NCBI GenBank assembly: GCA_965178125.1
Contig: OZ237774.1
Location: 556,229-576,228 of the forward strand
Reading direction: 5' to 3'
DNA: 20,000 bases
DNA from: Bilabrum cf. latius
Lineage: Eukaryota
Shown: positions 2-20,000 of the stretch, in pieces
How positions within the stretch are numbered: position 1 is the stretch's first letter
Layout of the letters: the number at the start of each line of letters is the position of its first letter
Position numbers and translations under genes: made by a program
Notes under the pieces: generated by a model
Told to the model about the DNA's origin: nothing
What the model saw: only the letters and a program-made list of their open reading frames with translations
The model's database searches: none

Positions 2-3000
2 CTGGGGCTGGCAGGGGGGTCTGGGCCTGCAAGGTAGAGAGGGGTAGATGCGGGTGAGGCTGGGGGGATGGAGTCGGTGCCAGCGGCCAAGAAGGCGAGG
101 GGGGCGGGGCACAGGGGTGCATCCCGGGGGGGGGATTCCCCTGCGGGACCCCTGTATGCGTGGGTGGATCGCATCGAGAGTGAGATGCGCGCGGTGCTGG
201 GGCACATGGGGGAGGGAGGAGGGGAGGGAGGCGTGGGGTGCCTCACAGTAGATCGGAGTGACGCCTGCATCGCCAGCTTGCTGCCGAGGGAAAACCCGCG
301 ATCTACCCGTGGATTGGCTGCCCGGCGCGCCCTGCTCGGTCTGCTGGCCTCTGCGGTGCATGGGTCGCTGCGAAAGGTGCTAGGCCGGGGCCTGGCTGCA
401 GTGCTTAGGGCGGCGGTGGGGGGAGACCTGAGGGGCGCGCTGGCGGAGGGTGCGAGTGCGGGTGTAGGTGCGGGATCTGCGTCCGGGAGGGATCGAGCCA
501 GGGGGCACCCCTCCGGTGCTGGGTCTGGCCTGTCGCTTGAGAGTGCGTGGGGGAGGGTGTCGCCGTCGGGGGCCAGCGTGCTAGGGCAATGGAGGGCGGT
601 GCCTCTGTCCGTGCGGGCGGGAGTCAGGGCTGCTGGGGCCGCTGCATGCACGGAGGGTGCAAGGGCGGTACGGCGGTGGCGGGGGGGCTCGCCGCACCCC
701 GAGGGGCATGCTATGCTGGTGGGCGGTGCGGCGCTGCAGGGCACGGGGGAGGGCACGGGGGAGGGCATGAATTGGGGAGAGGGGCGGTAGGCTGGGGAAC
801 ACCGGGACCAGGAGGGGTCTGTTCTCTCTGTGTCAGAGTGGGGTTTGCTGGGCTGGGACGGCGTGCTGAGGGGACAGGAGGCCGGGGATGCCGGAGTGCG
901 GGGGGGCGGCTGGGGTGCCGTGGCATCTGCAGCGAGGAATGGGCGCGGGCAAGCGGGGGTGCCGGACCCTGAGGGGGCCCGGTGGGGCGCGCTGGCGACT
1001 TTGCTGTGCTGGGGGAACTGGGCGGGGGAATCGGCGGGCGGGCTGGCGAGGGGGGCGCGATCAGCAGGGGGGGGCGTTGGTGGGGGAGCGGGGGGCTTCG
1101 ATGGAGCTGGTGAGGGTGCCAGTGGTGCCTCGGGGATGGGCGGCGGTGAGTCGGGGGGCCTTGGGCTGGAGCTGGGTCTCGGCGAGGGGGGGTTGGGTGA
1201 GGAGCGCAAGGAGGGGGAGGGAGCTGGGGAACAAGAGGGTCCTCTGCAGGAGGAGGCGGGCATGCTGGGGGAGGGGGAGGAGAGCGCGAGGGAGCTGGGG
1301 ATGGCTGTAGCCATGGCGGTGGCGGGGGCGAGGGAGTGCGGCGTGGGGCCCAAAGAGGCGGGGCGGGAGGACTGGCTGGCGGTGTGCGGGGCCAGGCTCT
1401 CGGAGGGCAGCTTGCTGGTGAGGCGAGCGGCGTGGGCTGCGATTGCGTGCATGCAGAGCCGGCAGCAGCTGCTGGGGCAGGGGCCCAAGGGGCTTGCGAT
1501 CGTGCCCGGGGCCTCGGGAGTATTTGTGGTGGGTACGGCCGATGGTCAGGTGGTGCCTGCATCTGTTGGATAGGAACACCCCGTAGATGGCAGCGTGCGC
1601 GAGACGGTATGCGGGCCACTGGTGCACCTCTGGAACCGCACTACTGCGAGTGTGGTGCGCGCAGCGGCACTAGGGGCCCGAGCCCTGTCGAGCGCGGGAT
1701 CGATTCCCGGTGTGGAAGAGGCATGCAGGGCGCTGGAGGCTGCTGGGGCGGCGATGGACCCAAGCGGTGACGGCCTAAGGGACGCCGGGACAGCCTCCCA
1801 GGGAACAAGGGAGCAGGACCCGCACGACACCCCCACGGCGCTTGCCCTGGCTCGGTGCACCACCGGCCCGGTGCTTCCCCCTGGTGCGGGCACTGGGTCC
1901 AGGGAACAACGTGGACGCGATGATTCGCTGCTGGCGCTTGCCCTCGCCCCTGTGCCGGCCGGGGCAGTGCGCTCCGTGCTGCAGGGCGCCTCTGCCCCCG
2001 GGCTGGAGGTGGGGGCGTGGACAAGGGGAGCCGCTGCGGGCGGGTGGTCGGGGGCAGCGGCGCTGCGGCGGGCCTGGGCCTGCGGGTTGGCACCGTGGGT
2101 GGGAGAGGGGCAGGGGCAGGGGCAGAGTCAGGGGGGGCGCCCAGGGAGCTAGGCGGGATTGCTGCCGGAGAATGACGAGTGCATGGTCAGTGTGACGAGT
2201 GCTGCTCGTGTTCTGCTTGGCCCGGATGCCACCGAGTCACAGATCCTCGACCTGGTGCGAGCATCGGCGGGGTGGGCGCTGGCCCCTGCGTCTGCGGATG
2301 GAGGCGGGCATGGTGCGTCTGCGATGCCGTGGCCCGCATCTACTCCGTGGGCGATCCGCTGCGTGTGTGCCCTGGGGTCCGGCATGGCACGGGGGGCGCT
2401 TGAGGGGGCCGTCAAGGCGGGCAGCGAGCCGGGGGTGGTGGCGCACTGCGGGTTCTTGTGTTCCCTGGGGAGGGCACTTGAGGAGGGGGGCGGGGGGGGT
2501 GGCGATGTGAGCGAGCTTGGGGCGGGGTGGGCCTGTGGAATGGGGGGCGAGCAGGAGAGGTGCACTGCATTGTGGCGATGCGCGAGCGCGTGCCAGTCGC
2601 TGGGCCTCGTGGGTGCTGCGGGGGCGCTATGCGGGGCGCTGGCCGGGAGGATTCGTAGGGGCGGGCAGCGGCCTCCCTGGGGCGCGAGGGGGGCGGCGCT
2701 GGTGGCGGGTGCACTGGCGGCGGGGGGCAGCGTGGGGGCGGCGTGGTCCGTTGTTTAGCTGCATGCTGAGCATGGAACGGGTGGGCAGGACCAGAGCCAC
2801 GGCAAAGAGGAAGAGGGGGAGGGGGATGGGGAGGGGGATGAGGGGGATGATGACTTGCCCGCCCCGCTGGGTGCCTTGGTGGACGCACTGGTGCAGCGGG
2901 GGGCACTCAGGGACCTGGCTGCCCTGCCTCTGGGGACAAGCGCCCTGCAGGCAGTGGCGAGGCGGGTGGGGTGGAGGGGGGGTGGCGCAAGTCCCGAGGG

Positions 3001-4504
3001 GGGCGCTCGCGGCATCGAGATTGGGTGCGCGCTGCTGCTTCGGGCCAGAGACAAGAAGGGCGCGGCATCTGCGGCGTGGGGGCTGGCCGCTTCGGCAGCG
3101 GTGCGCGGTGCCACCCAGCTGCGGGGGGTTGCAGGGGGTGCCCGCGGGGGAGCCAGGGAGGCGGGGCTGCATCGGTCGGCTGCCAGTCTGCAAGAGGCGG
3201 GGCGCATGGCTTCGCTGGCCACGGCCTGCCTGCGAGCGGAGCCCGATGCGCGGCGCCGTTGGGTGCCTCACGGGGGCCGAGTCCTGGATCGATCGGAGCT
3301 GCGGTTTCTGTCGGCAGCCCTCGAGGCGATGGGCAGGTGCGTCCAGGCGGCGAGCGAGCACGTGGATGGTGCTGGGGGGTAGAGGGGCAATGGAGGTGCT
3401 GGAGGGCAGGTTACCGCCGCCGATGCTGCTGCTGCCGCTGGAGAGGCCAGGGCGATTGTGGGTATGTGTCCGGTGGAGTGGAGCAGTCCGGGTGCAGTGC
3501 ACGGCGGTTCTATCCCTGTGGATGTGCTCCTGTCCCAGTGCATCCGACTGGGCCAGCTGCCCGCGGGCGAGCGGGTGGCAGCGGCGGCGGCTGCTTGGCG
3601 CGAGGCGGGGGCATGCCAGGAGGGGCGCGCTGTGGCGGGCGAGGGAGGGGCGGGACGGCGGGGGCTCGGCCCCAGTGGCAGTGCAGCACGGGGTCAGGAG
3701 CTCCGTGTGACGAGGGCGGCTGCCATGCTGGCCTGGGACCGAGCCCGGGACGAGGGCGCTGGGCGGCGGGGGGCCATGCAGCGGGCGGCAGCTGCAGCTG
3801 TGCCTGCCGTGCAGCGGGACTCTGTGGGGCTGCATGCCGGCGGGAGAGCTGCAGGTGTCGATGCTTCGCGAGGGGCTGGGCGCCAGGACCCCGGGGGTCT
3901 AGCCCGAGTGCTGGTGCGGGTGGGTCGGCCTGCAGAGGCGCTGTCGGCGCTGCTGGGGAGTGTGCCCGCCTCGCTGATTGAGATGAGGGGCAGTGTGACG
4001 AGTGCTTCGATGCCGCAGGGGGCGCTGGACGAGGCACTGCAGGCGGCGGAGGCTGTGGAGCTCCTGGGGGCAGACAGGGGTGTAGCGGCGAGTGTGCGGG
4101 CGGCAAGGGGGGCTGTGCTGGCTCGGCTGCACGACGCTGGGTGGGCCGCGGCTGAGGGGGCAGCCGAGCGGCAGGCGGCACATGCGGCAGGGATGCAGCC
4201 TGGGGTGGTACAGGGTGCGATGGAGCGGGAGGGGGAAGGACGGGGGGGAGGGGCTGGTGGGGTGCGGCTTGGTGAGGGGTGCCAGGCCTCGGCTGGGGGT
4301 GCACGTGCCGCTGCACTGGCCCTGAGGCCCCGAGCTGGGCTGGGGGTGTCGGGGGGCACCGGGCTGCTGCGGGGGTATGCAAGGAAGCAGGCGGTGAGCA
4401 GGGGAGGGGGCGAGGGCGGGGCAAGCGCGGCGCGGCTGGCAGCACTGGCAGCGGCAGTGCGGGCCCGTCCGTCGGCCGATCTGCCCCGCGAGCTGGTGGG
4501 CTGA
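2..4504 (+). CDS. Large (>=1500 aa) Gly/Ala-rich protein of unknown function, 5' end outside the window; needs TAG read as sense
   Basis: ORFs 68-790, 830-1573, 1595-2152, 2159-2758, 2855-3382 and 3458-4504 share one frame. They are separated only by single TAGs (35, 788, 1571, 2150, 2756, 3380), with no TAA/TGA until TGA-TGA at 4502-4507. No domain recognised. Confidence 0.75.
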
Positions 4505-4761
4505 TGATGCCGGTTGTGCACCGGGCGGTTCTGGTGGTTGAGAATTTAAGATTTTTGTAGGGTCCACAGAAGCTCAACGGATTCGATATTGGATGGTGTA
4601 CACAGTGGTGGCACGGCCAGCCTAGATCAATCGAGCCTTTTTTGTGCCGCATTCGTCACATGCTGCCACTGCTTCGGGAACAGTTGCAGTTCGAGAAAAC
4701 ACACACGACACAAGCTTGTTGGTTCAGTGTAACCCTAGTAATCTTTTCAATCGCCCTGGTT

Positions 4762-5733
4762 ATGTCGACACGTAGAGGTGGTGCGTCCAAGGGGAAGCCA
4801 AAGCATTAGAATAAGTTCGGTTTCAAGCACAACAAGAACAGTAAAAAGACCAAGATGATCTAGGTAATGCCGATTGAAGGGGTATGCCCTCGGTGCGCAG
4901 AGATTTTGATGTGGAGGAAGAAGTACAGGAAGTACAAGCCTCGCACGAAGCCCGGGAAGTGCATCAAGTGCCACGAACCTAAAGTCAGGCACGCCTACCA
5001 CTAGCTGTGTTCAGAGTGTGCAAAGGGTGATCGAAAATGCGCGAAATGTTCCGGCCCGATCCGTGGAGAGCGTCCTGGCGATGGCACTGCCGCTGCTTCT
5101 TTGGACCCCCTCGTTGTGGAGCGGAAGGAGGCGCTCGAGTCGGAGCTGGACAGCCTGGTGGAGGCCTCGCACCCTGACTACACGGAGAGGCAGAGGAGGG
5201 CCCGCATCAGGGAGATCCAGAAGGAGCTGGAGGTCATGGAGGAGAAACCAGAGGTTGCGCTGGAGGGAGTGCTGGATGAGGGAACTGCCGGTGAGGCGAG
5301 AGCAGGGGCTGCAGTGGGCGGGGCGGGTGCTGCAATGGGAGGGGCAGGTGCCAGCGAGAGCAAAGGGGGCGATGACGGGGAGGAAGAGAGAGAGGACGAA
5401 GATGGAGGGACTGGGCTGGGGCTGCCTGCATCTGCTGCTGCACCGGGAATGGGAGCAGGAGCGGGAGCAGGGGCGGGGGCAGGGGCGGGAGCTGGTGACG
5501 TATCGTCTGGAGGAGCGGTCCGGGCCACCGCTGGTGTGGCTGATGCAGAGGCCGGTGCTGTGGCTGAGGCTGGGGCTGAGGCTACAATGGGCGGGTTTGG
5601 TGCTGGTCTAGCTGATCCTGTAGCATCTGAATCCAGTGAAATTGCGAGCGTGGGTGATGATCGTGTTGCAGCCGGCGATAGTGCTACAAGAGTTGGAGGA
5701 GCGAGTGGCGCGGTATCGGGCATGCCAACTTGA
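4762..5733 (+). CDS. C9orf85: C9orf85/DUF2039-like Cys-rich protein (323 aa) with a long acidic, Ala/Gly-rich C-terminal tail
   Basis: ATG 4762 gives MSTRRGGASKGKPKH*NKFGFKHNKNSKKTKMI*VMPIEGVCPRCAEILMWRKKYRKYKPRTKPGKCIKCHEPKVRHAYH*LCSECAKGDRKCAKC. This fits the remembered family pattern KHQN..F.....GVC.RC.E...WR.KY.KYKP...P.KC.KC....V...YH..C..CA.....CAKC. TAGs at 4807, 4861, 5002; in frame with ORF 5101-5733, ends TGA. Confidence 0.88.
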
Positions 5734-5813
5734 TGCTGGCTCGGTGCATGGGGGACTGGTATTGAAAATGGCTAGCCCTAAATGGTCATGAAAACACACA
5801 ATACAGCTCCAGC

Positions 5814-8099
5814 TCACGTCGGTCTACTGGCCCCTCTTTGCCCCTGTCCGGATCGAGACCCACCCCCCAGCCCGCCCCCCAGCAGAAGCACAGCACCAGC
5901 CACGGCTGCCCCCGCGATGGCCCCCGCAGCCACACCGAGCAGGACAGCACTTGATCCTGCACCGCTGCTTCCCAGTACCATGCTCGCGCTCTCAAAGAAC
6001 CCCTTCTCGCTCAAGATTGCACCAGCACCGCCAGCACCACTGGCACCACTGGCACCAGCATCAGCTCCAACGGTACCTCCACTCTCGCCCTGCCCGATGC
6101 TCCCGGCAACTGTGCCACCGCCCCTCTCATGCCCTTCTCCCACACCCGCGTCCCACCCCTCAGGCACCTATCTCCCCGCCGCCCCGCACACTGCCCTCCC
6201 CAGCGCCCAGTAGTCGCCCTCTCTGTTGTACACGTGGCAGCTGAGACGCACCCACAGTCTGCCGCCCAGCAGCTTCACCGGGCATTCAATCCCAAGAGAA
6301 AACAGCCAGTCCTGCACTGCCTTGCAGTGCGTCGATGTCGGTGCTTGCACATGTGCCTACCTCTGCCCTGGCCCCCGCCCCTGCTCCACTCCCGGAGGCA
6401 GGATCCCATCGGGCAGCGGGACCAGTCTCAGGTGGGAGTGCAGGCTGTCGGGCAGCAGCTGGGGCCCGGGTCCGGGGGCGCGATCGTGTGACGCATATGC
6501 TGGGCTGTAGCCACCCCCTGCCCCTGCCCTGGCCCCTGCCCTTTCCACATCCTTGCCCCCCTCTTGTTCACCAAACCATGCCCGCCTCAGCTCCCCGTCC
6601 ACTCGCCGCAGCAGTGCCCTGCACCTTGCCTGCATCCCCCGCATGCCACCCCCCTTGGCCTCCCACCAGTCCAGCACCTCTGGAATAGCAAGGGCAGTGG
6701 CATAGTCCCTGCACCCGTCCCAGACGAATGCCCCCGCGAACCCCGCCTCGGCCCCATGCGACCTCACGGGAGGCACGCACAGGTCCCTCCCGCGCTGGGA
6801 GACCACCAGGGCGGCCACTCCTCGGGGGGCGCACAGCCACTTGTGCCCGTTGGTGACGAAGAAATCGAAGGGGAGGGAGGCCAGTGGCTGGTCCAGGCTG
6901 TGCGGGGGGACTCCCCTGGGCCGACGGAGAGACCCGCTTACGCGGCGGGAGGGCGAGGGGGAGGGGGAGGATGATCGCAGGCCGGTGCGGGGAGGAGTGC
7001 TGGCGCGGGAAGAGGTCACCGAGGATGCCACGGAACTCGGAGCCGAATGTCCGTTTGCGGCCGGCTTCCCCATGCTCAGCTGTCCCCAGGCGTGGGCGCC
7101 GTCCACCAGCACAAGGGCGCCTGACGAGTGCCTCCGGGCTGCAGCTGCCACCGCCCGCACTCCCTCCCACCAGACGCCCCCCGAGTTGCTTGTCACCAGG
7201 TCCACGACGACCAGGGCACAGGCGCAGTCCGGTGGCAGTGTGACGAGTGCCCTCTCGGCGGCGTCCTCCAGCACGTTGGTGGCAGCAGCTGCCGTGCAGT
7301 CCAGGGGTAGCGGGACGTCGGCAATAGCGGGAGGGGGCGCCCCCGCCTCTGCGCAGTATGCGCGGGCCATGGTTTTGTTGGCCCCGTAGCCCAGCGAGAG
7401 CAAGAGCACGCCCCGCTTGCTGCCCAGCCTCGCGCTGCGGAAGGCGGCGTTCACCCCAGTGGTCGCGTTGGGCACGAGAGCCACGCGGCGATGGCTCACC
7501 CCGAGGCTGATAGCCGTCCTGCGGATCGCGTGCGCGAGATGCGGGAAGAGCGCTCTATCCACGGCGCGCAGGGGCTGCCTCTCGATCCACGCTCGCCAAG
7601 CAGAGGCCACTGCATGGCCCACCAGGCAAGGGGCTCCAAATGCGCCGTGGTTGAGGAAGCGCCAGCGATCCTCTTCTGTGATATTTAGGCCTACTTCAGA
7701 TTCGGACAGGGCGCCACTCGTGCTGCTCGACTCGTGAGTTTCAAGTGCCTGCGACGGGCTAGGTTTGCCGTCGATGGTGTCGGACAGCTGCACGAGAAAC
7801 GCCTTGTGACGGCAAGCCGGATCCGACCAGCTCGGCACCTCTGCCATAGCACTGTTGATTGCTTTCTGAACTTCCGTAGGGACTGGGGGTCGGGGCATGT
7901 CGTCAGGTGCGAGCAACTAGTCCACCGATGCGCCCATGAACGAACCGAAGCCCTGATAGCCCGCTTTGGCTGCAGTGGCTGGATCGTCGGATACCATGCT
8001 GGGATAAACAGCATGAAGTCTTTCAGGAAGAGTGCTTTTGGTTTCCATCGCTTCCGCTTGGTGGTGTAAGCGCCCACTCGCGATCCAAGACGAGTTCAT
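5814..8099 (-). CDS. PLP-dependent aminotransferase class V, L-cysteine desulfhydrase / isopenicillin-N epimerase / Egt2-like lyase (up to 761 aa; start uncertain)
   Basis: Motifs FLNHGAFGA, LVPNATTGVN, VDGAHAWGQ, DFFVTNGHKWLCAPRG (PLP Lys), DGCRDY, then IECPVK and WVRLSCHVYN..GDY after an in-frame TAG. Four same-frame ORFs are joined by TAGs at 7917-7919, 6357-6359 and 6168-6170; ends TGA at 5814-5816. Confidence 0.85.
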
Positions 8100-8243
8100 T
8101 GACGGTTCGGCACGAACTTTGCGAGCTTATTTGGAGGAAGTTAATTCGGGTAGGGATGGCTTCCTGCGTACAAGCTACATTGTTGTGACCCGTAGTAGTC
8201 TAGAAGAGCCTGGTGTTTTGCCGGCGGAATTCGCAACTGCCAC

Positions 8244-10463
8244 ATGTCACCAGAATCGTTGGCGCATGGCGGAGTAACCCGCCTTGCGATCCTGTCCCTG
8301 ACAAACCTTCCGGTCTTGCTACCGGCCGTGTGGATTATGCGGCAAGGTCTCCTACTTGAAGGGCTTGTTCTTGCTACGGTTGCTTTCGCTTCGACTATGT
8401 ACCACGCTTGCGACGAAGAGTGGCCGACCGAATGCAGTGCCTCATCGTTCCGGGTGATGAAGGCATTCGATGAATCCGTGGCTCGCACAGCTGCCGTCGT
8501 TGGGGCAGCATTGCTGGGTGGTGCGCCAAGGCGGCTGCGAAGGGTTGCCATCGTTGCCTCGCTCGTTGGGTGCGCCTGTCTCCAGGCGTCCCCGAACGGG
8601 TCCGATTCCTCCCTCGTTCTCGCGGTGAGCTTCGCTGTCATGGCGGGCCTCGGAGGCTTGGTGTATGCCATCGCGCGGTCCTCCCTTCGATTCGCCACGG
8701 GAGCCAGGTGCATCGCCCTGGCGCACCGCCTGCATCTGCAGCGGCGCAAGCACGGTATGCCAGGTGCTGCAAGCAAGAGTGCTACTGGCTCGTCGAATAC
8801 TGCGAGTGGGGGAGCGGCCGATGAAGGCGAGGAGGACACGGTGAGTCGATTGGAGGATCAGCTGCGTGCTTCTTTGCATTGGTGGGCATTGCTAGGCGAG
8901 AGCGGTCACAGCGAGCATGACGGGAGTGCGGTGCCTGGCTGGGAACTGCCCCGCGGTGAGGTGGGGCTGGGGACTGGCAGGATTGCAGGTGTGACGAGTG
9001 TAGACGATGGCGTGCATCCGGGGGAAGGGGCCGATTGCTGTTTCCCTGCAGGGCCACAGGGGAGGTGCTGCTGCATGCAACAAGCTGGAACTGCCACCGG
9101 CACCGGCACCGGCATTGCCTCAAGGAGGGCGAGCAGCAGCAACGGCAGGCGCTGGAACCAAGACGGGAAGCATGCCGCACACAGTAGCAACGCTGACAAT
9201 GGGAGCCGCAGCCTCGTTCATGCCCCTCTGCCATCGAGCGAGCCAGTGGGCAAGAGCAGCTCCCCCAGGCAGCAGGTGTCCCCACCCAACGGCATGGCCC
9301 GGCTCCGCTCCTCGGGGGGATCCCCCGCCATGGTCCCCTCCATGGGGCGAGAGGCTGACCTGGAGATGGGGACATACATCCCGGCTCCGAGTCCGCTGCG
9401 GGGCCGGTCTGTTGCTCCGGCCGTGGGAAGGCAGGCTGAGTAGGCTCCAGTCCCAGGGGCCCGGGCTGGTCCTAGCTGCCTTGGCTTGTGTTCCCTGGCC
9501 TCTTGTTCCCTGAGCTAGTGTGCTCGTGTGCTTGCAGATGCAGCCGGTGTGCGTCCCTTGCTGTGGCTGCCTTCTGCCTGTGGCTCGGCGCTGGGCGGGG
9601 AGTTGCAGCTGTGTCTGTGCCCCTGTGTGGCAATGGGGTGCGGGGGGGCGGGGCTGCGGGCGGGGCCCGAGGTGTGGAGGCGTAGGGTGATAGTGCAGGC
9701 GCTGGTGCTGTGGGGCTGGTGGCAGGATGGTGATGAGAGGGGTAAGCGGGGTTGTTTCTGGAGATGGCTGGGGCTGGGCGGTGATGCATCAACAACGAAA
9801 TCAACAGCCGGTGATATGGTGAGAGAGGAGTTGGGCACAGGAGCGGATGGAACTAGCAGGGGTGGAATCAGCATGGCAGGATGGCTACAGGACATGCAGC
9901 TGCTGGCAGGGGATCGTGATCGTCAGGCAGGTGGAGTGGACAATGACAGGGGCCCCACAGTGGGGGCCGGATGCTGCGGGCGATTGCGAGCATTGGTCGC
10001 TGCCTGCCTGGTGCTTGGGTACGGATGCGGGCACGGCCGGAATGTGCGCTGGGTGGGACTGTTGGCGAGCGTGTTTCTAGTGGTGTGCGGGGGCATTGTG
10101 TTCGTGTACGCCAACGCAAGTGAGGATGAGTAGGGTAGGTGTGGTTCGGTGGATGCATTTGCCGGTTGTGGAGGCAATGAAGGTGGGCGGGTAGCGGGCA
10201 AGGAGGGGTGGGGGGCGGTGTCGCTGGAGGCGTGGTGGTAGGTAGCGAGGTATCCGTTGCTGCACGGGGCCTGGCACTTGCTGGTGATGTGGGGGCTGGC
10301 GGGGGCGGTGAGCAGGGGCTGGTGGGGCAGGCGGACTGGGGGTGGGAGGGAGGTGCGGATGGGGAGTGAGCTCGTGGTGGGGATGGACAGGCACGGGGTC
10401 ATTGGGGAAGAAATGCAATTGGCAAGGGGGCTCCTGAGGGGCATGGCTCTGGATGATGAATGA
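8244..10463 (+). CDS. TMEM8/PGAP6/myomaker-like (DUF3522, CREST superfamily) multi-pass membrane protein, 739 aa with large low-complexity insertions
   Basis: N-terminal LTNLPVLLPAV...LEGLVLATVAFASTMYHACD...FD and C-terminal YPLLHGAWHLL give the CREST SxxxH / D / HxxxH set. The two parts are in one frame, joined through TAGs at 9441, 9516, 10131 and 10239; ends TGA at 10461-10463. Confidence 0.75.
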
Positions 10464-10591
10464 CTAGGAGGCAAACTCAACTCGAAACCCCCTCGCAACC
10501 AACTGAGGAACCCGGAACTGCCAGATTTCCATGGCGGCAGCCGTCTGGCTGCTGCTACTGTGCGACGGCATTTTGATTCCTCTTCTCCACA

Positions 10592-11302
10592 ATGTCGTAG
10601 AGGCGATCAGGACAGGCAATCGTATAGCCAATTCATCGCCTCTTTGACTTCTTGCAAAAGGTGGGACACACCGACCATGTGTTGAATCACATGCTTACCT
10701 CGATGCAGTCTGATGTCATCGAATCTTGCGCCCAGCCTGGTATTTCTTGCTTTCATTAGTATTGTGTATAATATTTTCGCAGAGAACAAAGGTTCACGTT
10801 TGGCTAGTCGAGAAAAAGCATGAGAGACTTGAGGGCTATGTCGCTGGCTTCGACGAATACATGAATACGGTACTAGGTGAGACATGATTTGGCCGACTGT
10901 ATGTATTGTATGCATGCTTAGGCCCACTTGCTCCAAGCCTTCCTACTACGTACATTGAAACCTTCACATCGTTATTGCTCGATTTTGTGAGATTCCAACT
11001 TCATCCTGATCGCGCTTGTCTATTGTATTCTTTCATTGGTGTACGCAGATGATTGTTATGAACTAAATGCTAAAACTAGGAAGAGAACGCATCTTGGTCG
11101 CTTGTTACTGAAAGGGGACAACATTGTACTGATCCAGCCAGCTCCGGCTGGTGGCAGTGCACCTGCTGGTGCAGCCGAGGGTACCAGCGATGTTGCTGCT
11201 AGCAGCAGCAGCAGCAGCAGCAGCAGCTCAGCTTCTAGTAGTGCACCACCGCCACCGCCAGCACAGCCTGCAGCCGCTGCTGCAGCCAGCGGGGGGCAGT
11301 GA
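10592..11302 (+). CDS. SNRPE: Small nuclear ribonucleoprotein SmE; exons 10592-10660, 10783-10876, 11049-11302 (138 aa)
   Basis: Spliced translation MS*RRSGQAIV*PIHRLFDFLQK|RTKVHVWLVEKKHERLEGYVAGFDEYMNTVL|DDCYELNAKTRKRTHLGRLLLKGDNIVLIQ... matches SmE (VQPI..IF..LQ, WL.E, GFDEYMN.VLDD, LGRI.LKGDNI). TAGs at 10598 and 10625; ends TGA. Confidence 0.95.
10661..10782 (+). other. Spliceosomal GT-AG intron 1 of SmE (122 nt, phase 0)
   Basis: AAG|GTGGGA ... TTTTCGCAG|AGA; AT-richer than the exons of the neighbouring genes; removal restores the SmE alignment (LQK|R). Confidence 0.88.
10877..11048 (+). other. Spliceosomal GT-AG intron 2 of SmE (172 nt, phase 1)
   Basis: CTAG|GTGAGA ... GTACGCAG|AT; removal restores VLDD. 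Confidence 0.9.
11201..11227 (+). repeat. (AGC)9 coding microsatellite encoding poly-Ser in the SmE tail
   Basis: Read directly from the sequence. Confidence 0.9.
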
Positions 11303-11777: not shown

Positions 11778-12799
11778 TTAGGTTAGGGGGGGTTAGGGGT
11801 TTAGGGTTAGGGGTTTAGGGTTAGGGTTAGTAAGGGTTAGGGTTAGGGTTAGGGTTAGGGTTAGGGTTAGGGTTAGGGTTAGGGTTAGGGTTAGGGTTAG
11901 GGTTAGGGTTAGGGTTAGGGTTAGGGTTAGGGTTAGGGTTAGGGTTAGGGTTAGGGTTAGGGTTAGGGTTAGGGTTAGGGTTAGGGTTAGGGTTAGGGTT
12001 AGGGTTAGGGTTAGGGTTAGGGTTAGGGTTAGGGTTAGGGTTAGGGTTAGGGTTAGGGTTAGGGTTAGGGTTAGGGTTAGGGTTAGGGTTAGGGTTAGGG
12101 TTAGGGTTAGGGTTAGGGTTAGGGTTAGGGTTAGGGTTAGGGTTAGGGTTAGGGTTAGGGTTAGGGTTAGGGTTAGGGTTAGGGTTAGGGTTAGGGTTAG
12201 GGTTAGGGTTAGGGTTAGGGTTAGGGTTAGGGTTAGGGTTAGGGTTAGGGTTAGGGTTAGGGTTAGGGTTAGGGTTAGGGTTAGGGTTAGGGTTAGGGTT
12301 AGGGTTAGGGTTAGGGTTAGGGTTAGGGTTAGGGTTAGGGTTAGGGTTAGGGTTAGGGTTAGGGTTAGGGTTAGGGTTAGGGTTAGGGTTAGGGTTAGGG
12401 TTAGGGTTAGGGTTAGGGTTAGGGTTAGGGTTAGGGTTAGGGTTAGGGTTAGGGTTAGGGTTAGGGTTAGGGTTAGGGTTAGGGTTAGGGTTAGGGTTAG
12501 GGTTAGGGTTAGGGTTAGGGTTAGGGTTAGGGTTAGGGTTAGGGTTAGGGTTAGGGTTAGGGTTAGGGTTAGGGTTAGGGTTAGGGTTAGGGTTAGGGTT
12601 AGGGTTAGGGTTAGGGTTAGGGTTAGGGTTAGGGTTAGGGTTAGGGTTAGGGTTAGGGTTAGGGTTAGGGTTAGGGTTAGGGTTAGGGTTAGGGTTAGGG
12701 TTAGGGTTAGGGTTAGGGTTAGGGTTAGGGTTAGGGTTAGGGTTAGGGTTAGGGTTAGGGTTAGGGTTAGGGTTAGGGTTAGGGTTAGGGTTAGGGTTA
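11778..12799 (+). repeat. Telomeric tract 1, (TTAGGG)n, ~1020 bp
   Basis: Variant units at 11778-11836 (TTAGG, TTAGGGGGGG, TTAGGGG, TTTAGGG, TTAG-TAAGGG), then ~160 perfect repeats. Confidence 0.98.
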
Positions 12800-12832
12800 C
12801 AGTACCATCCTAGGCCAGGCCCGGGCGCCGCG

Positions 12833-12870
12833 AAAGTATCATGTTCCGCAAAAAGTATCATGTTCCGCAA
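12833..12870 (+). repeat. 19-bp tandem duplication AAAGTATCATGTTCCGCAA x2 near the left end of A (also at 15663-15700)
   Basis: Two perfect adjacent copies, 12833-12851 and 12852-12870. Confidence 0.9.
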
Positions 12871-14905
12871 TGACGGCGGTGCCGCGCAGTGTCCAAGTGG
12901 TCGCAAGATCGCGCCGAGGCGGATCTTGGCCAGTTGCAGAGATGCAAGCAGTCGACAAGAGGTGCGAGTGGTTGGCAATGCATATTTGGTGTATGATTAT
13001 GCGTGTCTGCTTGGTTTGCAATGAATCTCGGCCTCGGTCTCCTCGGTGGTGCGGCTCATGGGTGACGAACACCCAGGGGGCTGCACGGGATGGACGCGCA
13101 CCCGGCGAGTCTGGACCAAACCGCGTCGTGCAAATTGGGTTTGCCAAGGAGGTGTGCCCTGCTGTGTTTCGCCCGCGAGAATAGGGGGTTGTCTCCCCGT
13201 CGGGCAGGTATTCCATCCAGCTCGCCCGTCCGTGACTGAGACAGCACGGGCCGCGACAAGTGCGCGAGCCCGGGGATCAAGTCAGCGGCCGATGGCAGCG
13301 AGCCGGCATGAAGCGCGTGCACGAGGAGCTTGCGCTCCCCATGCACTGCCTGCCCCACCTCATTGCGGATCTGGGACATCAGGTTCATCGTGTTGCCACA
13401 CACACCTCCACACTCGACGATCGGATCTACAGAGACACCTGTCCCGGGATGCTGCTCCTCGTCATTGGCCTGCTCCTTCTCGCCCCGGGGGCACGCGCTG
13501 CCTCGAAGCACGCACCCGCGCTCCCGCCCGACTCAAGGACTGAGTGCTGGGAGGGTGCGCGGGCAGCCGCGTGAGAGGATGACGGGCGTGCCGCCGAAGG
13601 CCGAGTCCAGGAGCTGGGGACGGGACGCATCGTTGGGACTGCCCTGAAGAGACCAAAGAATCAACCGCCATCCGTACGGAACCCTATATGGTCGGCCGGT
13701 CTGACTCTCTGCTCGCCCACCGCACGGATCTGCTCAGTTCCATGCAATGTTTGCCAGAAGCGGCGAGAGGGTCTCATCAGCACAGGTGGGTCCTAAAAGC
13801 TGCCTGCAATGCATAAGAAAAGAATAAAACGGTTGAAAATAAATTAATAGCCCCTCGATGCATGGCAACATACCCGAGTGCTGCCATGAAAACCGGACAA
13901 CGCACAAGCACGTCAGCAGACCAGCGACCTTCCCATTCAGATGCCAGAACCTAACACAAATACAAAGCAAACAAACTGAATGAATACAATAGAATCAAAA
14001 TACCTGGCGGTTGTTTTACTCGGGCTATGCTGTACCTGGCTGTTCTGTCTGCAAGCGCCATCGCGCGCCCCAATGAGGCGAGACCTAAGCAGAGCTACAG
14101 CAGCATGCCACCTTGGACACACCGCGATATACGGCAGTAAATGGTATTAAATATTAATCCCAACAGGTTCCAGGACACTTGAGACTGTCTGTGGTGCTGA
14201 GAGGTATGGTTGCGCTAGATTTCGCAAACGGTTGTGAACAGCGGAACCAGTTAGCTAGGCGGCGCGGCGTCTTAGGCTGCACAATGCTGCCAGACTCAGC
14301 AGTGAATACCGTCAATCTCGCATCATAGTTTCAAACGATGAGTACTTTTGTTGTATGTGTTAGTGGAAGTCAGTCCGAGTGCATTGGTTGGGCGAATATT
14401 TGAGATTCTCTCACCTTCGCAGTTGCTGCAGCTACTAGATGTATACGCGGACCATCCACTACTTCGCAATATGAAAACGCTGGCGCATTATTTCCGCATG
14501 AATTCAACTGAGTCCCCTTCCACACGCTAGGCAGCAAGCATCACTATTCACCAGTGGACTTGCCAAAGTCCCTACTACTCCTGTAGTGGCTGCCTGGGCT
14601 GATTCCGATGTCCGGGTTATCAATACCGTCCTAGCACGCTGCCAGAAACCTTCATTGAATGCAATCAAATATCATTGCCTGAGGTGCCGGTCATTTGGAT
14701 AGAGAAGGAAGTCACATTTCTGCTGGCTGGCACTGAGGTGCTGCCTCAAGGACGTCGTCCTACATGTTGGGACCAAGCAAATCATACTCCGTTCGGTGGA
14801 TTGATCGTTGTACAAGTTTTAAGACTTTATATATCGAGTTACCATGCGGACCACAAAGCGGACCGATCCCAAGGTGGCACATCCGCATCTCCACCCAGTG
14901 GGGCT

Positions 14906-15501
14906 CCCAACCAGCTTGCCCCAGCATAGCCACCATGGCCCCATCCATCGCCCACACACCCAACCAGCTTGCCCCGGCACAGCCACCACGGCCCCCTCCA
15001 TCGCCCACACACCCAACCAGCTTGCCCCAGCACAGCCACCACGGCCCCCTCCATCGCCCGCACTCCCGACCTGCTTGCCCCAGCACAGCCACCATAGCCC
15101 CCATCCATCGCCCACACACCCTACTTGCTCCGGCACAGCCACCATGGCCCCCTCCATCGCCCACACACCCAACCAGCTTGCCCCAGCACAGCCACCATGG
15201 CTCCATCCATCGCCCACACACCCAACCAGCTTGCCCCAGCACAGCCACCATGGCTCCATCCATCGCCCACACACCCAACCAGCTTGCCCCGGCACAGCCA
15301 CCATAGCCCCCATCCATCGCCCACACACCCTACTTGCTCCGGCACAGCCACCATGGCCCCATCCATCGCCCACACACCCAACCAGCTTGCCCCAGCACAG
15401 CCACCATGGCTCCATCCATCGCCCACACACCCAACCAGCTTGCCCCGGCACAGCCACCATAGCCCCCATCCATCGCCCACACACCCTACTTGCTCCGGCA
15501 C
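14906..15501 (+). repeat. C-rich minisatellite, 49-54-bp units, 11 full copies plus a partial
   Basis: Unit CCCAACCAGCTTGCCCCAGCACAGCCACCATGGCCCCATCCATCGCCCACACA. Starts at 14906, 14959, 15012, 15065, 15119, 15168, 15221, 15274, 15328, 15377, 15430, 15484. Confidence 0.95.
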
Positions 15502-15629
15502 AGGGTTAGGGTTAGGGTTAGGGTTAGGGGTTAGGGTTAGGGTTAGGGTTAGGGTTAGGGTTAGGGTTAGGGTTAGGGTTAGGGTTAGGGTTAGGGTTAG
15601 GGTTAGGGTTAGGGTTAGGGTTAGGGTTA
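15502..15629 (+). repeat. Telomeric tract 2, ~21 TTAGGG units
   Basis: Perfect apart from one TTAGGGG near the left end. Confidence 0.97.
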
Positions 15630-17329
15630 CAGTACCATCCTAGGCCAGGCCCGGGCGCCGCGAAAGTATCATGTTCCGCAAAAAGTATCATGTTCCGCAA
15701 TGACGGCGGTGCCGCGCAGTGTCCAAGTGGTCGCAAGATCGCGCCGAGGCGGATCTTGGCCAGTTGCAGAGATGCAAGCAGTCGACAAGAGGTGCGAGTG
15801 GTTGGCAATGCATATTTGGTGTATGATTATGCGTGTCTGCTTGGTTTGCAATGAATCTCGGCCTCGGTCTCCTCGGTGGTGCGGCTCATGGGTGACGAAC
15901 ACCCAGGGGGCTGCACGGGATGGACGCGCACCCGGCGAGTCTGGACCAAACCGCGTCGTGCAAATTGGGTTTGCCAAGGAGGTGTGCCCTGCTGTGTTTC
16001 GCCCGCGAGAATAGGGGGTTGTCTCCCCGTCGGGCAGGTATTCCATCCAGCTCGCCCGTCCGTGACTGAGACAGCACGGGCCGCGACAAGTGCGCGAGCC
16101 CGGGGATCAAGTCAGCGGCCGATGGCAGCGAGCCGGCATGAAGCGCGTGCACGAGGAGCTTGCGCTCCCCATGCACTGCCTGCCCCACCTCATTGCGGAT
16201 CTGGGACATCAGGTTCATCGTGTTGCCACACACACCTCCACACTCGACGATCGGATCTACAGAGACACCTGTCCCGGGATGCTGCTCCTCGTCATTGGCC
16301 TGCTCCTTCTCGCCCCGGGGGCACGCGCTGCCTCGAAGCACGCACCCGCGCTCCCGCCCGACTCAAGGACTGAGTGCTGGGAGGGTGCGCGGGCAGCCGC
16401 GTGAGAGGATGACGGGCGTGCCGCCGAAGGCCGAGTCCAGGAGCTGGGGACGGGACGCATCGTTGGGACTGCCCTGAAGAGACCAAAGAATCAACCGCCA
16501 TCCGTACGGAACCCTATATGGTCGGCCGGTCTGACTCTCTGCTCGCCCACCGCACGGATCTGCTCAGTTCCATGCAATGTTTGCCAGAAGCGGCGAGAGG
16601 GTCTCATCAGCACAGGTGGGTCCTAAAAGCTGCCTGCAATGCATAAGAAAAGAATAAAACGGTTGAAAATAAATTAATAGCCCCTCGATGCATGGCAACA
16701 TACCCGAGTGCTGCCATGAAAACCGGACAACGCACAAGCACGTCAGCAGACCAGCGACCTTCCCATTCAGATGCCAGAACCTAACACAAATACAAAGCAA
16801 ACAAACTGAATGAATACAATAGAATCAAAATACCTGGCGGTTGTTTTACTCGGGCTATGCTGTACCTGGCTGTTCTGTCTGCAAGCGCCATCGCGCGCCC
16901 CAATGAGGCGAGACCTAAGCAGAGCTACAGCAGCATGCCACCTTGGACACACCGCGATATACGGCAGTAAATGGTATTAAATATTAATCCCAACAGGTTC
17001 CAGGACACTTGAGACTGTCTGTGGTGCTGAGAGGTATGGTTGCGCTAGATTTCGCAAACGGTTGTGAACAGCGGAACCAGTTAGCTAGGCGGCGCGGCGT
17101 CTTAGGCTGCACAATGCTGCCAGACTCAGCAGTGAATACCGTCAATCTCGCATCATAGTTTCAAACGATGAGTACTTTTGTTGTATGTGTTAGTGGAAGT
17201 CAGTCCGAGTGCATTGGTTGGGCGAATATTTGAGATTCTCTCACCTTCGCAGTTGCTGCAGCTACTAGATGTATACGCGGACCATCCACTACTTCGCAAT
17301 ATGAAAACGCTGGCGCATTATTTCCGCAT
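15630..17329. mobile_element. Cassette A, second copy (A'), right-truncated (1700 bp)
   Basis: Matches 12800-14499 at a constant offset of 2830; ORF-track translations are identical. It diverges at ...TTCCGCAT|G versus ...TTCCGCAT|TAGGTTAGGG. Confidence 0.6.
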
Positions 17330-17436
17330 TAGGTTAGGGTTAGGGTTAGGGTTAGGGTTAGGGTTAGGGTTAGGGTTAGGGTTAGGGTTAGGGTTAGGGT
17401 TAGGGTTAGGGTTAGGGTTAGGGTTAGGGTTAGGGT
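17329..17436 (+). repeat. Telomeric tract 3, ~18 units
   Basis: TTAGG followed by perfect TTAGGG, ending GGGT. Confidence 0.97.
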
Positions 17437-18625
17437 ATCAGGGGGTCAACTTATACTTAGGGTCGGCCATTTTCGGCTTTTACGCTAGCGCGCGTCAGGG
17501 AACAAGACTAATATATTCTGATAGCGCATGCTTGAAAACCTAGGTTACAACTCTGAGTTGGGCCATAGCTCCCCGCGGCGCCGCGGTTCCGCAGGGTCAG
17601 TGAAATCCGTCAGGGCCGGGTGCCGTCTGGGGGTGGATCCGGAGTCGATATGCATGGACACCATTGTGTGCCCCATGATGTGTACATATGATGAGACACT
17701 TGAAACGCAGCGATTGCATGTGTTGCGGCCGAGATATGGTCGAGTCAGTGGATTTTACTGGCGGCACTGACGGCGATTTTGCCCCGAGTCAGTAAAATGG
17801 AGTACTGGCCGTTTGCGGTCTCGGATGGGCGTATTGGATCGCGGTTTTCGATGTGTTTGATGTGCCACGGTGCATGGGGCAGGGAACACACCCGCTACAA
17901 ACCCGTTCTGCCCGCGGCGCCGCGGTTCCGCAGGGTCAGTGAAATCCGTCAGGGCCGGGTGCCGTCTGGGGGTGGATCCGGAGTCGATATGCATGGACAC
18001 CATTGTGTGCCCCATGATGTGTACATACGATGAGACACTTGAAACGCAGCGATTGCATGTGTTGCGGCCGAGATATGGTCGAGTCAGTGGATTTTACTGG
18101 CGGCACTGACGGCGATTTTGCCCCGAGTCAGTAAAATGGAGTACCGGCCGTTTGCGGTCTCGGATGGGCGTATTGGATCGCGGTTTTCGATGTGTTTGAT
18201 GTGCCACGGTGCATGGGGCAGGGAACACACCCGCTACAAACCCGTTCTGCCCGCGGCGCCGCGGTTCCGCAGGGTCAGTGAAATCCGTCAGGGCCGGGTG
18301 CCGTCTGGGGGTGGATCCGGAGTCGATATGCATGGACACCATTGTGTGCCCCATGATGTGTACATACGATGAGACACTTGAAACGCAGCGATTGCATGTG
18401 TTGCGGCCGAGATATGGTCGAGTCAGTGGATTTTACTGGCGGCACTGACGGCGATTTTGCCCCGAGTCAGTAAAATGGAGTACTGGCCGTTTGCGGTCTC
18501 GGATGGGCGTATTGGATCGCGGTTTTCGATGTGTTTGATGTGCCACGGTGCATGGGGCAGGGAACACACCCGCTACAAACCCGTTCTGCCCGCGGCGCCG
18601 CGGTTCCGCAGGGTCAGTGAAATCC
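17437..18625. other. Telomere-embedded cassette B: ~135-bp unique leader plus 339-bp tandem array, truncated at right
   Basis: Flanked by tracts 3 and 4; no similarity to A seen. Confidence 0.7.
17572..18625 (+). repeat. 339-bp satellite, 3 full units plus 37 bp
   Basis: Units start at 17572, 17911, 18250, 18589. Only isolated C/T differences seen (TACATATGA/TACATACGA; GTACTGG/GTACCGG). Confidence 0.95.
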
Positions 18626-19120
18626 TTAGGTTAGGGTTAGGGGGTTAGGGGTTAGGGTTAGGGTTAGGGTTAGGGTTAGGGTTAGGGTTAGGGTTAGGGT
18701 TAGGGTTAGGGTTAGGGTTAGGGTTAGGGTTAGGGTTAGGGTTAGGGTTAGGGTTAGGGTTAGGGTTAGGGTTAGGGTTAGGGTTAGGGTTAGGGTTAGG
18801 GTTAGGGTTAGGGTTAGGGTTAGGGTTAGGGTTAGGGTTAGGGTTAGGGTTAGGGTTAGGGTTAGGGTTAGGGTTAGGGTTAGGGTTAGGGTTAGGGTTA
18901 GGGTTAGGGTTAGGGTTAGGGTTAGGGTTAGGGTTAGGGTTAGGGTTAGGGTTAGGGTTAGGGTTAGGGTTAGGGTTAGGGTTAGGGTTAGGGTTAGGGT
19001 TAGGGTTAGGGTTAGGGTTAGGGTTAGGGTTAGGGTTAGGGTTAGGGTTAGGGTTAGGGTTAGGGTTAGGGTTAGGGTTAGGGTTAGGGTTAGGGTTAGG
19101 GTTAGGGTTAGGGTTAGGGT
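18626..19120 (+). repeat. Telomeric tract 4, ~495 bp
   Basis: TTAGG, TTAGGG, TTAGGGGG, TTAGGGG, then perfect repeats ending GGGT. Confidence 0.98.
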
Positions 19121-20000
19121 ATCTAATATAAAGTCAGGGACAGGGTCGGGGAAAAAATATTTTCATCTTCATTTTTTTGTCGAAAATGTGCCCTCTGCGA
19201 TCTCAGCAACTAGAATAGGTATGAAGATGATTCAAACTGTTTTGGGATGGCCTAGGGCCATATCATGGGGCAAATGTTCCCCAGGTTCCGTTTTGACCGC
19301 GCGGCGACGATACTGGCTGATGAAGATTTACATGCCGAAAATGTGCCCTCTGCGATCTCAGCAACTAGAATAGGTATGAAGATGATTCAAACTGTTTTGG
19401 GATGGCCTAGGGCCATATCATGGGGCAAATGTTCCCCAGGTTCCGTTTTGACCGTGCGGCGACGATACTGGCTGATGAAGATTTACATGCCGAAAATGTG
19501 CCCTCTGCGATCTCAGCAACTAGAATAGGTATGAAGATGATTCAAACTGTTTTGGGACGGCCTAGGGCCATATCATGGGGCAAATGTTCCCCAGGTTCCG
19601 TTTTGACCGCGCGGCGACGATACTGGCTGATGAAGATTTACATGCCGAAAATGTGCCCTCTGCGATCTCAGCAACTAGAATAGGTATGAAGATGATTCAA
19701 ACTGTTTTGGGACGGCCTAGGGCCATATCATGGGGCAAATGTTCCCCAGGTTCCGTTTTGACCGCGCGGCGACGATACTGGCTGATGAAGATTTACATGC
19801 CGAAAATGTGCCCTCTGCGATCTCAGCAACTAGAATAGGTATGAAGATGATTCAAACTGTTTTGGGATGGCCTAGGGCCATATCATGGGGCAAATGTTCC
19901 CCAGGTTCCGTTTTGACCGCGCGGCGACGATACTGGCTGATGAAGATTTACATGCCGAAAATGTGCCCTCTGCGATCTCAGCAACTAGAATAGGTATGAA
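19121..20000. other. Telomere-embedded cassette C: 60-bp leader plus 155-bp tandem array running off the window
   Basis: Starts ATCTAATATAAAG immediately after GGGT. Confidence 0.7.
19181..20000 (+). repeat. 155-bp satellite, 5 full units plus a partial
   Basis: Units start at 19181, 19336, 19491, 19646, 19801, 19956; near-identical (GGATGG/GGACGG, CCGCGC/CCGTGC). Confidence 0.97.

Follow-up and report, generated by a model that had tools for sequence, protein, structure and literature searches.

The stretch analysed here (the window) comprises 20,000 nucleotides of contig OZ237774.1 from Bilabrum cf. latius (assembly GCA_965178125.1, positions 556,229 to 576,228) and forms the terminal part of contig C40 (G000:C40:556229-576228) in a genome of 48.6 Mb and 111 contigs. 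Its genes contain in-frame TAG codons, and our subject is the meaning of UAG and UAA in this nucleus. Five genes were modelled upstream of the window's telomeric repeats (Table 1). The reading frame of the first, a long gene of low complexity that matched no Pfam family, extends upstream into locus L047, and in the DUF2039 gene all three TAG codons lie within the matched domain (residues 14-97). The SmE/LSM gene (10592-11302, plus strand) consists of three exons, and assemblies of three public runs contain the spliced joints of its two GT..AG introns; no match to the 23 residues of its exon 1 was found in the structure database. All five genes close with TGA, as claimed in an initial annotation of the sequence, which had also counted 18 sense TAG and no sense TAA in ~3,460 codons and suggested that UAG may be uncoupled from UAA. 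Our recount gave 18 and 0 in 3,427 sense codons, together with 14 CAA and 75 CAG, and the examples of CAA usage cited there (ATG-CAA-CAA at 9075 and TTG-CAA-AAG at 10652) are present. The comparison of TAA:TAG with CAA:CAG within the window is weak, as that annotation had warned: the probability of finding 0 TAA against 18 TAG, were the two ratios equal, is 0.046 (binomial; Fisher P = 0.12). The absence of TAA from the window is by itself marginal and only suggestive evidence.

Table 1. Genes modelled in the window, with positions counted from its first letter
Feature	Position	Strand	In-frame TAG	Remarks
Long low-complexity gene, 3′ part	2..4504	+	35, 788, 1571, 2150, 2756, 3380	TGA end
DUF2039 gene (PF10217)	4762..5733	+	4807, 4861, 5002	TGA end
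Class-V aminotransferase-like gene (PF00266, weak, E 1e-4)	5814..7997	-	7919, 6359, 6170	TGA end
DUF3522 membrane-protein gene (PF12036)	8244..10463	+	9441, 9516, 10131, 10239	TGA end
SmE/LSM gene, exon 1	10592..10660	+	10598, 10625	Present in spliced contigs
SmE/LSM gene, exon 2	10783..10876	+		PF01423
SmE/LSM gene, exon 3	11049..11302	+		TGA end

The meaning of TAG was assessed in 19 dynein heavy-chain loci. Their three-frame translations, in which TAA, TAG and TGA were all masked, were aligned to 120 dynein-10 homologues. Codons were kept where at least 60 homologues aligned and the neighbours were at least 40% like the consensus, and the 25,944 codons that passed this filter include 78 TAG, 115 CAA and 952 CAG, with no TAA and no TGA. 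At columns conserved to at least 70%, TAG met Gln in 17 of 40 cases, compared with 19 of 51 for CAA and 233 of 480 for CAG, and the non-Gln residues at the TAG columns belong to the same secondary set as those of CAA and CAG (E, K and R). Residue Q44 of eRF1 is encoded by TAG at a column that is Gln in 111 of 111 homologues. Among the strict DxxGQ matches of Rab/Ras loci, the switch-II Gln is TAG in 4 of 9 and CAG in 5 of 9. The 28 matches to the AAA_6 family contain 20 TAG and no other stop, and PRP8, used as a test gene, has just 4 TAG, of which none falls on a column that is clearly Gln. An independent metagenome contig, L183, carries a dynein 92% identical to the gene of this genome, with 18 TAG and no internal TAA. 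There, TAG stands opposite our CAG 13 times and CAG stands opposite our one TAG; 13 of the 18 TAGs are opposite Gln and none is opposite Tyr. In 35 loci chosen for other purposes, the coding signal persists after TAG (n = 75), unlike the TGA-like collapse after TAA (P = 2e-4), and the downstream score after TAG equals that after CAA (P = 0.38). Together, these results strongly support a reading of UAG as Gln in this nuclear genome.

Terminators were read at 41 homology-anchored C-termini, drawn from 11 of the 19 dynein loci, 9 distinct histone genes, 20 of 30 Ras-family loci and eRF1; the remaining 8 dynein loci had no readable C-terminus, and the remaining 10 Ras loci lacked the Cys motif or had partial exons. 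TGA closes 31 of these ends, TAA closes 10 and TAG none (95% upper bound for TAG 7%). The TAA ends are those of the dyneins L109 and L112, eRF1, the histones H4, H2A and one H3, and four Rab/Ras proteins with a Cys-motif end (CC/CAAX). Paralogues (H3, dyneins) terminate at the same column with either TAA or TGA, and the L183 dynein closes with TAA where the gene of this genome has TGA. In the 35 loci mentioned above, a TAA (n = 5) brings the same collapse of coding signal as a TGA (n = 41; P = 0.49), and 27 long filtered open reading frames (ORFs) stop 23 times at TGA and 4 times at TAA. Stops within 65 Ras matches comprised 48 TAG, 2 TGA and 1 TAA; the TAA is intronic and one of the two TGAs is the codon directly before an exon. 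These data support the view that UAA and UGA both remain stops, UGA serving as the main one in about three quarters of genes.

Of the alternatives considered, the one that survives best is a dual meaning of UAG (Gln internally, stop near gene ends) or leaky readthrough with a competing eRF1, and even this we judge improbable. It would fit the retention of T32 and E55 in eRF1, the small share of TAG among dynein Gln codons (only ~7%, with none in the histone matches) and a slightly greater frequency of TGA within 60 codons after TAG (15/75) than after CAA (8/80). However, TAG occurs at none of the 41 anchored ends, and, unlike in codes of the Condylostoma/Blastocrithidia type, it is not depleted toward gene ends, its share of Gln codons being 13/82 over the final 60 codons and 135/1,121 across the rest of the gene (P = 0.30). 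Leaky termination would also be costly in a genome with up to 21 TAG in a single dynein frame and 2 in eRF1.

The eRF1 gene (L105:1068-2941), modelled in four exons from inspection of GT..AG borders, has its two TAGs in the N (codon-reading) domain and ends with TAA. By human residue numbering, the protein retains G31-T32-S33, E55, N61, K63 (NIKS), S70, and Y125, C127 and F131 (YxCxxxF); the GTS motif is intact, and the T32G change of the Iotanema type is not present. Eight positions are altered, and the frequency of each change among 209 homologues is low for most: A27T (0), G29A (1), N30D (0), I35V (0), S60V (1), L69Q (8), L126M (25) and K130H (0). The Cafeteria protein is canonical at all of these positions but for K130R. 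In yeast, eRF1 L69A is described as raising readthrough, slightly more at UAG, and N30A as having no effect (PMC4381064). One of the two N-domain UAGs is the last codon of exon 2, and it may be speculated that residual termination at the UAGs of this gene could feed back on the level of eRF1.

A tRNA gene with anticodon CUA was found in single copy at G000:C23:907607-907679 (69.8 bits; cloverleaf fold), and the tRNA-Gln genes found were one tRNA-Gln(UUG) and two tRNA-Gln(CUG). No tRNA(UUA) appeared in the Rfam tRNA search, in which 63 of 780 candidates were scored, or in two pattern searches (45 and 40 matches), both of which recovered tRNA(CUA). Of the 45 matches, 30 were checked by ARAGORN and the remainder read from the matched strings; such searches miss intron-bearing and long-arm tRNAs, and the set obtained is incomplete, since tRNAs for His, Trp and Asp never turned up. 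The TTA hits of the CUA/UUA pattern search were two dispersed repeats plus chance matches and not tRNAs, and the pattern GGAYTYTRAATCC gave 3 matches, none of them a tRNA. The survey also revealed two nuclear tRNA-Ile(GAU) genes (L008:1501-1573 and L041:5093-5165), the Ala and Thr tRNAs having A34; no Ile(AAU) tRNA was seen within this incomplete set. Eukaryotic nuclei seldom encode a tRNA-Ile with G34.

Among 33 other nuclear tRNA sequences, the best match to tRNA(CUA) is tRNA-Tyr(GUA), with 50 identities in an ungapped alignment, 6 of 7 acceptor pairs in common (including C1-G72) and 4 of 5 anticodon-stem pairs. Identities with the others are 49 for Gln(UUG), with gaps, 46-47 for Glu and 46 for Gln(CUG). 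The D arm is like that of Gln(UUG) and Glu, and the base at position 73 is G, as in Gln(UUG), instead of A. A derivation of tRNA(CUA) from tRNA-Tyr is suggested by this likeness, and we treat it as a lead and not as a result. The shared stem pairs would also favour an amber suppressor derived from tRNA-Tyr that reads UAG, in part or for the most part, as Tyr or some other residue. We consider this highly unlikely: at the dynein columns conserved to at least 70%, TAG met Tyr in 0 of 40 cases, compared with 309 of 418 for TAC, the TAGs of L183 likewise avoid Tyr and mostly face Gln, and G73 replaces A73, which together with C1-G72 specifies Tyr in eukaryotes (PMC9976931).

Still less credible is a table 6 code, with UAA and UAG both read as Gln and sense TAA hidden by GC bias. 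The window alone is compatible with it, and most nuclear UAR reassignments are coupled (PMC11687900). Under table 6, however, ~9 TAA would be expected in the filtered dynein codons, and none was seen (Fisher P = 3e-4; 3e-5 with L183 included). An ORF of 788 codons in L046, bounded by TGA only and with a G+C fraction at third codon positions (GC3) of 0.50, contains 50 CAA, 13 CAG, 11 TAG and 0 TAA, where ~40 TAA would be expected (P = 6e-7). Counts of TAA absence were taken from TGA-bounded or homology-aligned stretches only, ORFs bounded by TAA being excluded as uninformative. In metagenome dyneins of table-6-like type with a GC3 of 0.55-0.69, the same alignment method does pick up sense TAA, the numbers of TAG and TAA being 33/34 in L231, 27/33 in L213 and 14/3 in L211. 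Moreover, table 6 is refuted by the 10 TAA ends, among which the codon directly follows conserved C-terminal motifs (H4, eRF1, dynein, CAAX), and no tRNA(UUA) was seen in the incomplete searches.

The uncoupling of UAG from UAA proposed in the initial annotation is upheld by the 78 TAG and 0 TAA of the dyneins and by TAA at 10/41 aligned ends, where TAG is found at 0/41. That annotation had cautioned that TAA was not seen as a terminator, which these ends resolve, and that GC bias could hide a sense TAA, a caveat removed by the absence of TAA from the L046 ORF, which is rich in A at third positions. It had named an in-frame TAA at a conserved Gln column and a tRNA-Gln(UUA) as findings that would count against it; the former occurs in 0 of the 25,944 dynein codons and the latter did not turn up in three partial searches, so that the split of the two codons is not refuted.

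Contigs from the public runs X5, X6 and X7 (two studies) cover the TAGs at 1571, 3380, 4807, 4861, 5002, 6359, 7919, 9441 and 9516, are identical to the window over 4711-5304, and join the exons across both SmE introns, the exon-1 side being covered for 80-93 letters. An RNA origin is certain for the spliced contigs alone, none of the holders on record being listed as RNA, and stretches without coverage were not counted as silent; a further run, X10, represents a relative ~90% alike. The least credible explanation of all, an artefact of sequencing errors, pseudogenes or U-to-C RNA editing of UAG, has nothing direct in its favour beyond the RNA nature of runs X5-X7 being a guess, and is largely refuted because TAGs occur in the essential single-copy genes PRP8, eRF1 and SmE, the X5-X7 contigs match the window letter for letter across TAGs with no T>C listed, the contig of the related species (L183) uses TAG alike, and a cognate tRNA exists.

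The lineage was examined with a FastTree dynein-10 tree of 101 rows (the gene of this genome, 81 of the 120 homologues and 19 of 79 metagenome loci) and 2,988 columns. Our gene and L183 are sister to Cafeteria roenbergensis plus P0001, with Shimodaira-Hasegawa-like support of 1.00, and the best named match for both dynein and eRF1 is Cafeteria. We read the organism as a Cafeteria-related flagellate of marine type, presumably a bicosoecid stramenopile. Contig C111 (38.4 kb; L049, L050, L103, L104) is mitochondrial, its recognisable genes (atp1-like, cox, nad, ribosomal) all lying on a single strand; a tRNA with the anticodon UCA on this contig indicates that mitochondrial UGA is Trp. A fornicate identity, as in Iotanema, is ruled out by the mitochondrial contig and the position in the tree.

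Weighing this evidence, we assign a probability of about 0.93 to the reading that this bicosoecid nucleus uses NCBI table 15, with UAG as Gln and UAA and UGA as stops. A dedicated tRNA(CUA), presumably charged with Gln, would pair with UAG and not with UAA, where a C:A mismatch permits no wobble. Cumulative lineage-specific changes around the GTS loop and codon-reading pocket (A27T, G29A, N30D, I35V, S60V and L69Q) would have cost eRF1 most of its UAG recognition, and the retained GTS, E55, NIKS, S70 and YxCxxxF would let UAA and UGA still terminate. The preprint on the Cafeteria genome, in its accessible text, attributes a non-standard code to the mitochondrion alone (10.1101/751586), so the reassignment probably postdates the divergence of this lineage from Cafeteria. 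Several points weigh against this reading. TAG is followed by a lower coding score than CAG (P = 7e-5), a gap that we ascribe, short of proof, to splice sites and to a greater frequency of TAG in genes of weak bias. The tRNA(CUA) carries the Tyr determinant C1-G72 and is nearer to tRNA-Tyr than to either tRNA-Gln, and the tRNA search covered a small fraction of its candidates. Wheat eRF1 also has L69Q; with this, its occurrence in 8 of 205 homologues and the lack of effect of N30A in yeast, the eRF1 changes alone are not proof. The assignment of Gln comes from homology, and the placement of the organism from one gene tree plus best named matches.

A fuller history can be put forward only tentatively, and as a whole it is rather doubtful. 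It would make this the first nuclear reassignment of a stramenopile, in which a tRNA-Tyr was recruited by a GUA to CUA anticodon change, the classic amber-suppressor step, and then took on Gln identity through A73 to G73 and a Gln-like D arm and T loop; eRF1 would have lost UAG with its GTS untouched, UGA would be the main stop, and endogenous virophage or Polinton-like elements would share the code.

AT-rich inserts at L032, L036, L044, L045 and L046 (G000:C7, C3, C9, C25) contain genes for an rve integrase, a DUF5906 primase-helicase, an origin-binding helicase, an RNA ligase and a C5 methylase, and resemble endogenous virophage or Polinton-like elements. Their ORFs have in-frame TAG and end with TAA or TGA, and the inserts carry tRNA-Met(CAU) and tRNA-Pro(UGG) genes of their own. 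Endogenous elements that adopt the code of the host are known from Streblomastix (PMC10120064). Other codes were met among the metagenome loci. The dynein-10 of L218 has 6 in-frame TAG, 5 of them opposite Leu, and no TAA at GC3 0.26, which we read as a eukaryote with a putative UAG = Leu code; L260, at 432 codons too short to call, has 3 TAG (2 opposite Gln), 0 TAA, 12 CAA and 5 CAG; and in L212, L213 and L214 TAA and TAG are mostly opposite Glu.

Two further features of the window stand apart from the code. A 12-base motif occurs five times on the plus strand (2190, 3705, 3993, 7238 and 8989) inside three genes, where 0.09 occurrences are expected, and its strand is independent of gene direction; it is possibly a DNA-level signal embedded within coding sequence. 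Positions 11790-20000, at the contig end, hold four TTAGGG tracts (11790-12799, 15502-15629, 17332-17436 and 18629-19120) alternating with a duplicated ~1.7 kb unit (from 12800 and from 15630) and with tandem arrays of 53, 339 and 155 base pairs, and represent either a subtelomere that contains telomeric tracts internally or a tangle in the assembly.

UAA and UAG are nearly always reassigned as a pair, and splits are rare. Codes in which UAG alone is read as Gln have been described in Iotanema spirale, Hartmannula sinica, Trochilia petrani and Protocruzia tuzeti (PMC11687900, PMC5304391, PMC9161772); no stramenopile is among the cases named there. Iotanema (Panek et al. 2017, PMC5304391; Vargova et al. 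2022, PMC9161772) has the same table 15, with a predicted tRNA(CUA) and UAA as a stop. It is an anaerobic metamonad (Fornicata) from an unrelated supergroup, whereas the present organism is an aerobic stramenopile with mitochondrial DNA; its eRF1 carries T32G, where ours has an intact GTS and changed flanking residues; its dominant stop is UAA, here UGA (31/41); and its tRNA(CUA) gene, predicted but not identified according to the available text of the first report (PMC5304391), is found here. The ciliates Hartmannula sinica, Trochilia petrani and Protocruzia tuzeti (McGowan et al. 2024) use table 15 with a UAG free of dual meaning, as here. In the first two, which are phyllopharyngeans, UAA ends 86.9-98.3% of genes, and the authors explain the locking of UAA by this dominance; the accessible part of that paper reports no suppressor tRNA detected in either species (PMC11687900), in contrast to the tRNA(CUA) found here. 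Since UAA ends only about a quarter of genes in our organism, the dominance argument does not apply to it, and its main stop being UGA speaks against the view that near-universal use is the sole reason for UAA remaining a stop.

UAG is also uncoupled from UAA, with another amino acid and in other lineages, in the rhizarian exLh and the TARA phyllopharyngeans (Leu) and in Scotinosphaera (Ser) (PMC11687900); exLh eRF1 has L69A at the position that is Gln here (L69Q). With the table 6 codes of ciliates, Hexamita, Streblomastix, ulvophytes and Amoeboaphelidium, the present code shares UAG as Gln, but UAA is here a stop. Cafeteria roenbergensis, the closest named relative, shares the GC-rich genome and the mitochondrial UGA = Trp. 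No report of nuclear reassignment in a bicosoecid or other stramenopile was found in the open-access literature, a scope that leaves aside subscription papers, database annotations and supplements, and a term search of the main text of a stramenopile review (PMC11412368) and two Halocafeteria preprints gave no mention. A table-15 code in a stramenopile nucleus is fairly likely to be previously unreported. In the portions of the literature available, the earlier exceptions were seen in transcriptomes or in fragmented ciliate assemblies, where a tRNA(CUA) for Gln had been predicted and not found. Here, a near chromosome-scale genome joins the tRNA gene, an altered eRF1, a Cafeteria sister with canonical eRF1 and a code-sharing relative, and the discrimination of UAG from UAA by eRF1 becomes testable by a handful of substitutions. 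Under standard-code annotation, genes of this lineage come out truncated, as do those of its endogenous viruses. The code itself is the known table 15, and the stramenopile host, UGA as the main stop, the intact GTS and the tRNA(CUA) gene in hand are what differ from the known cases.

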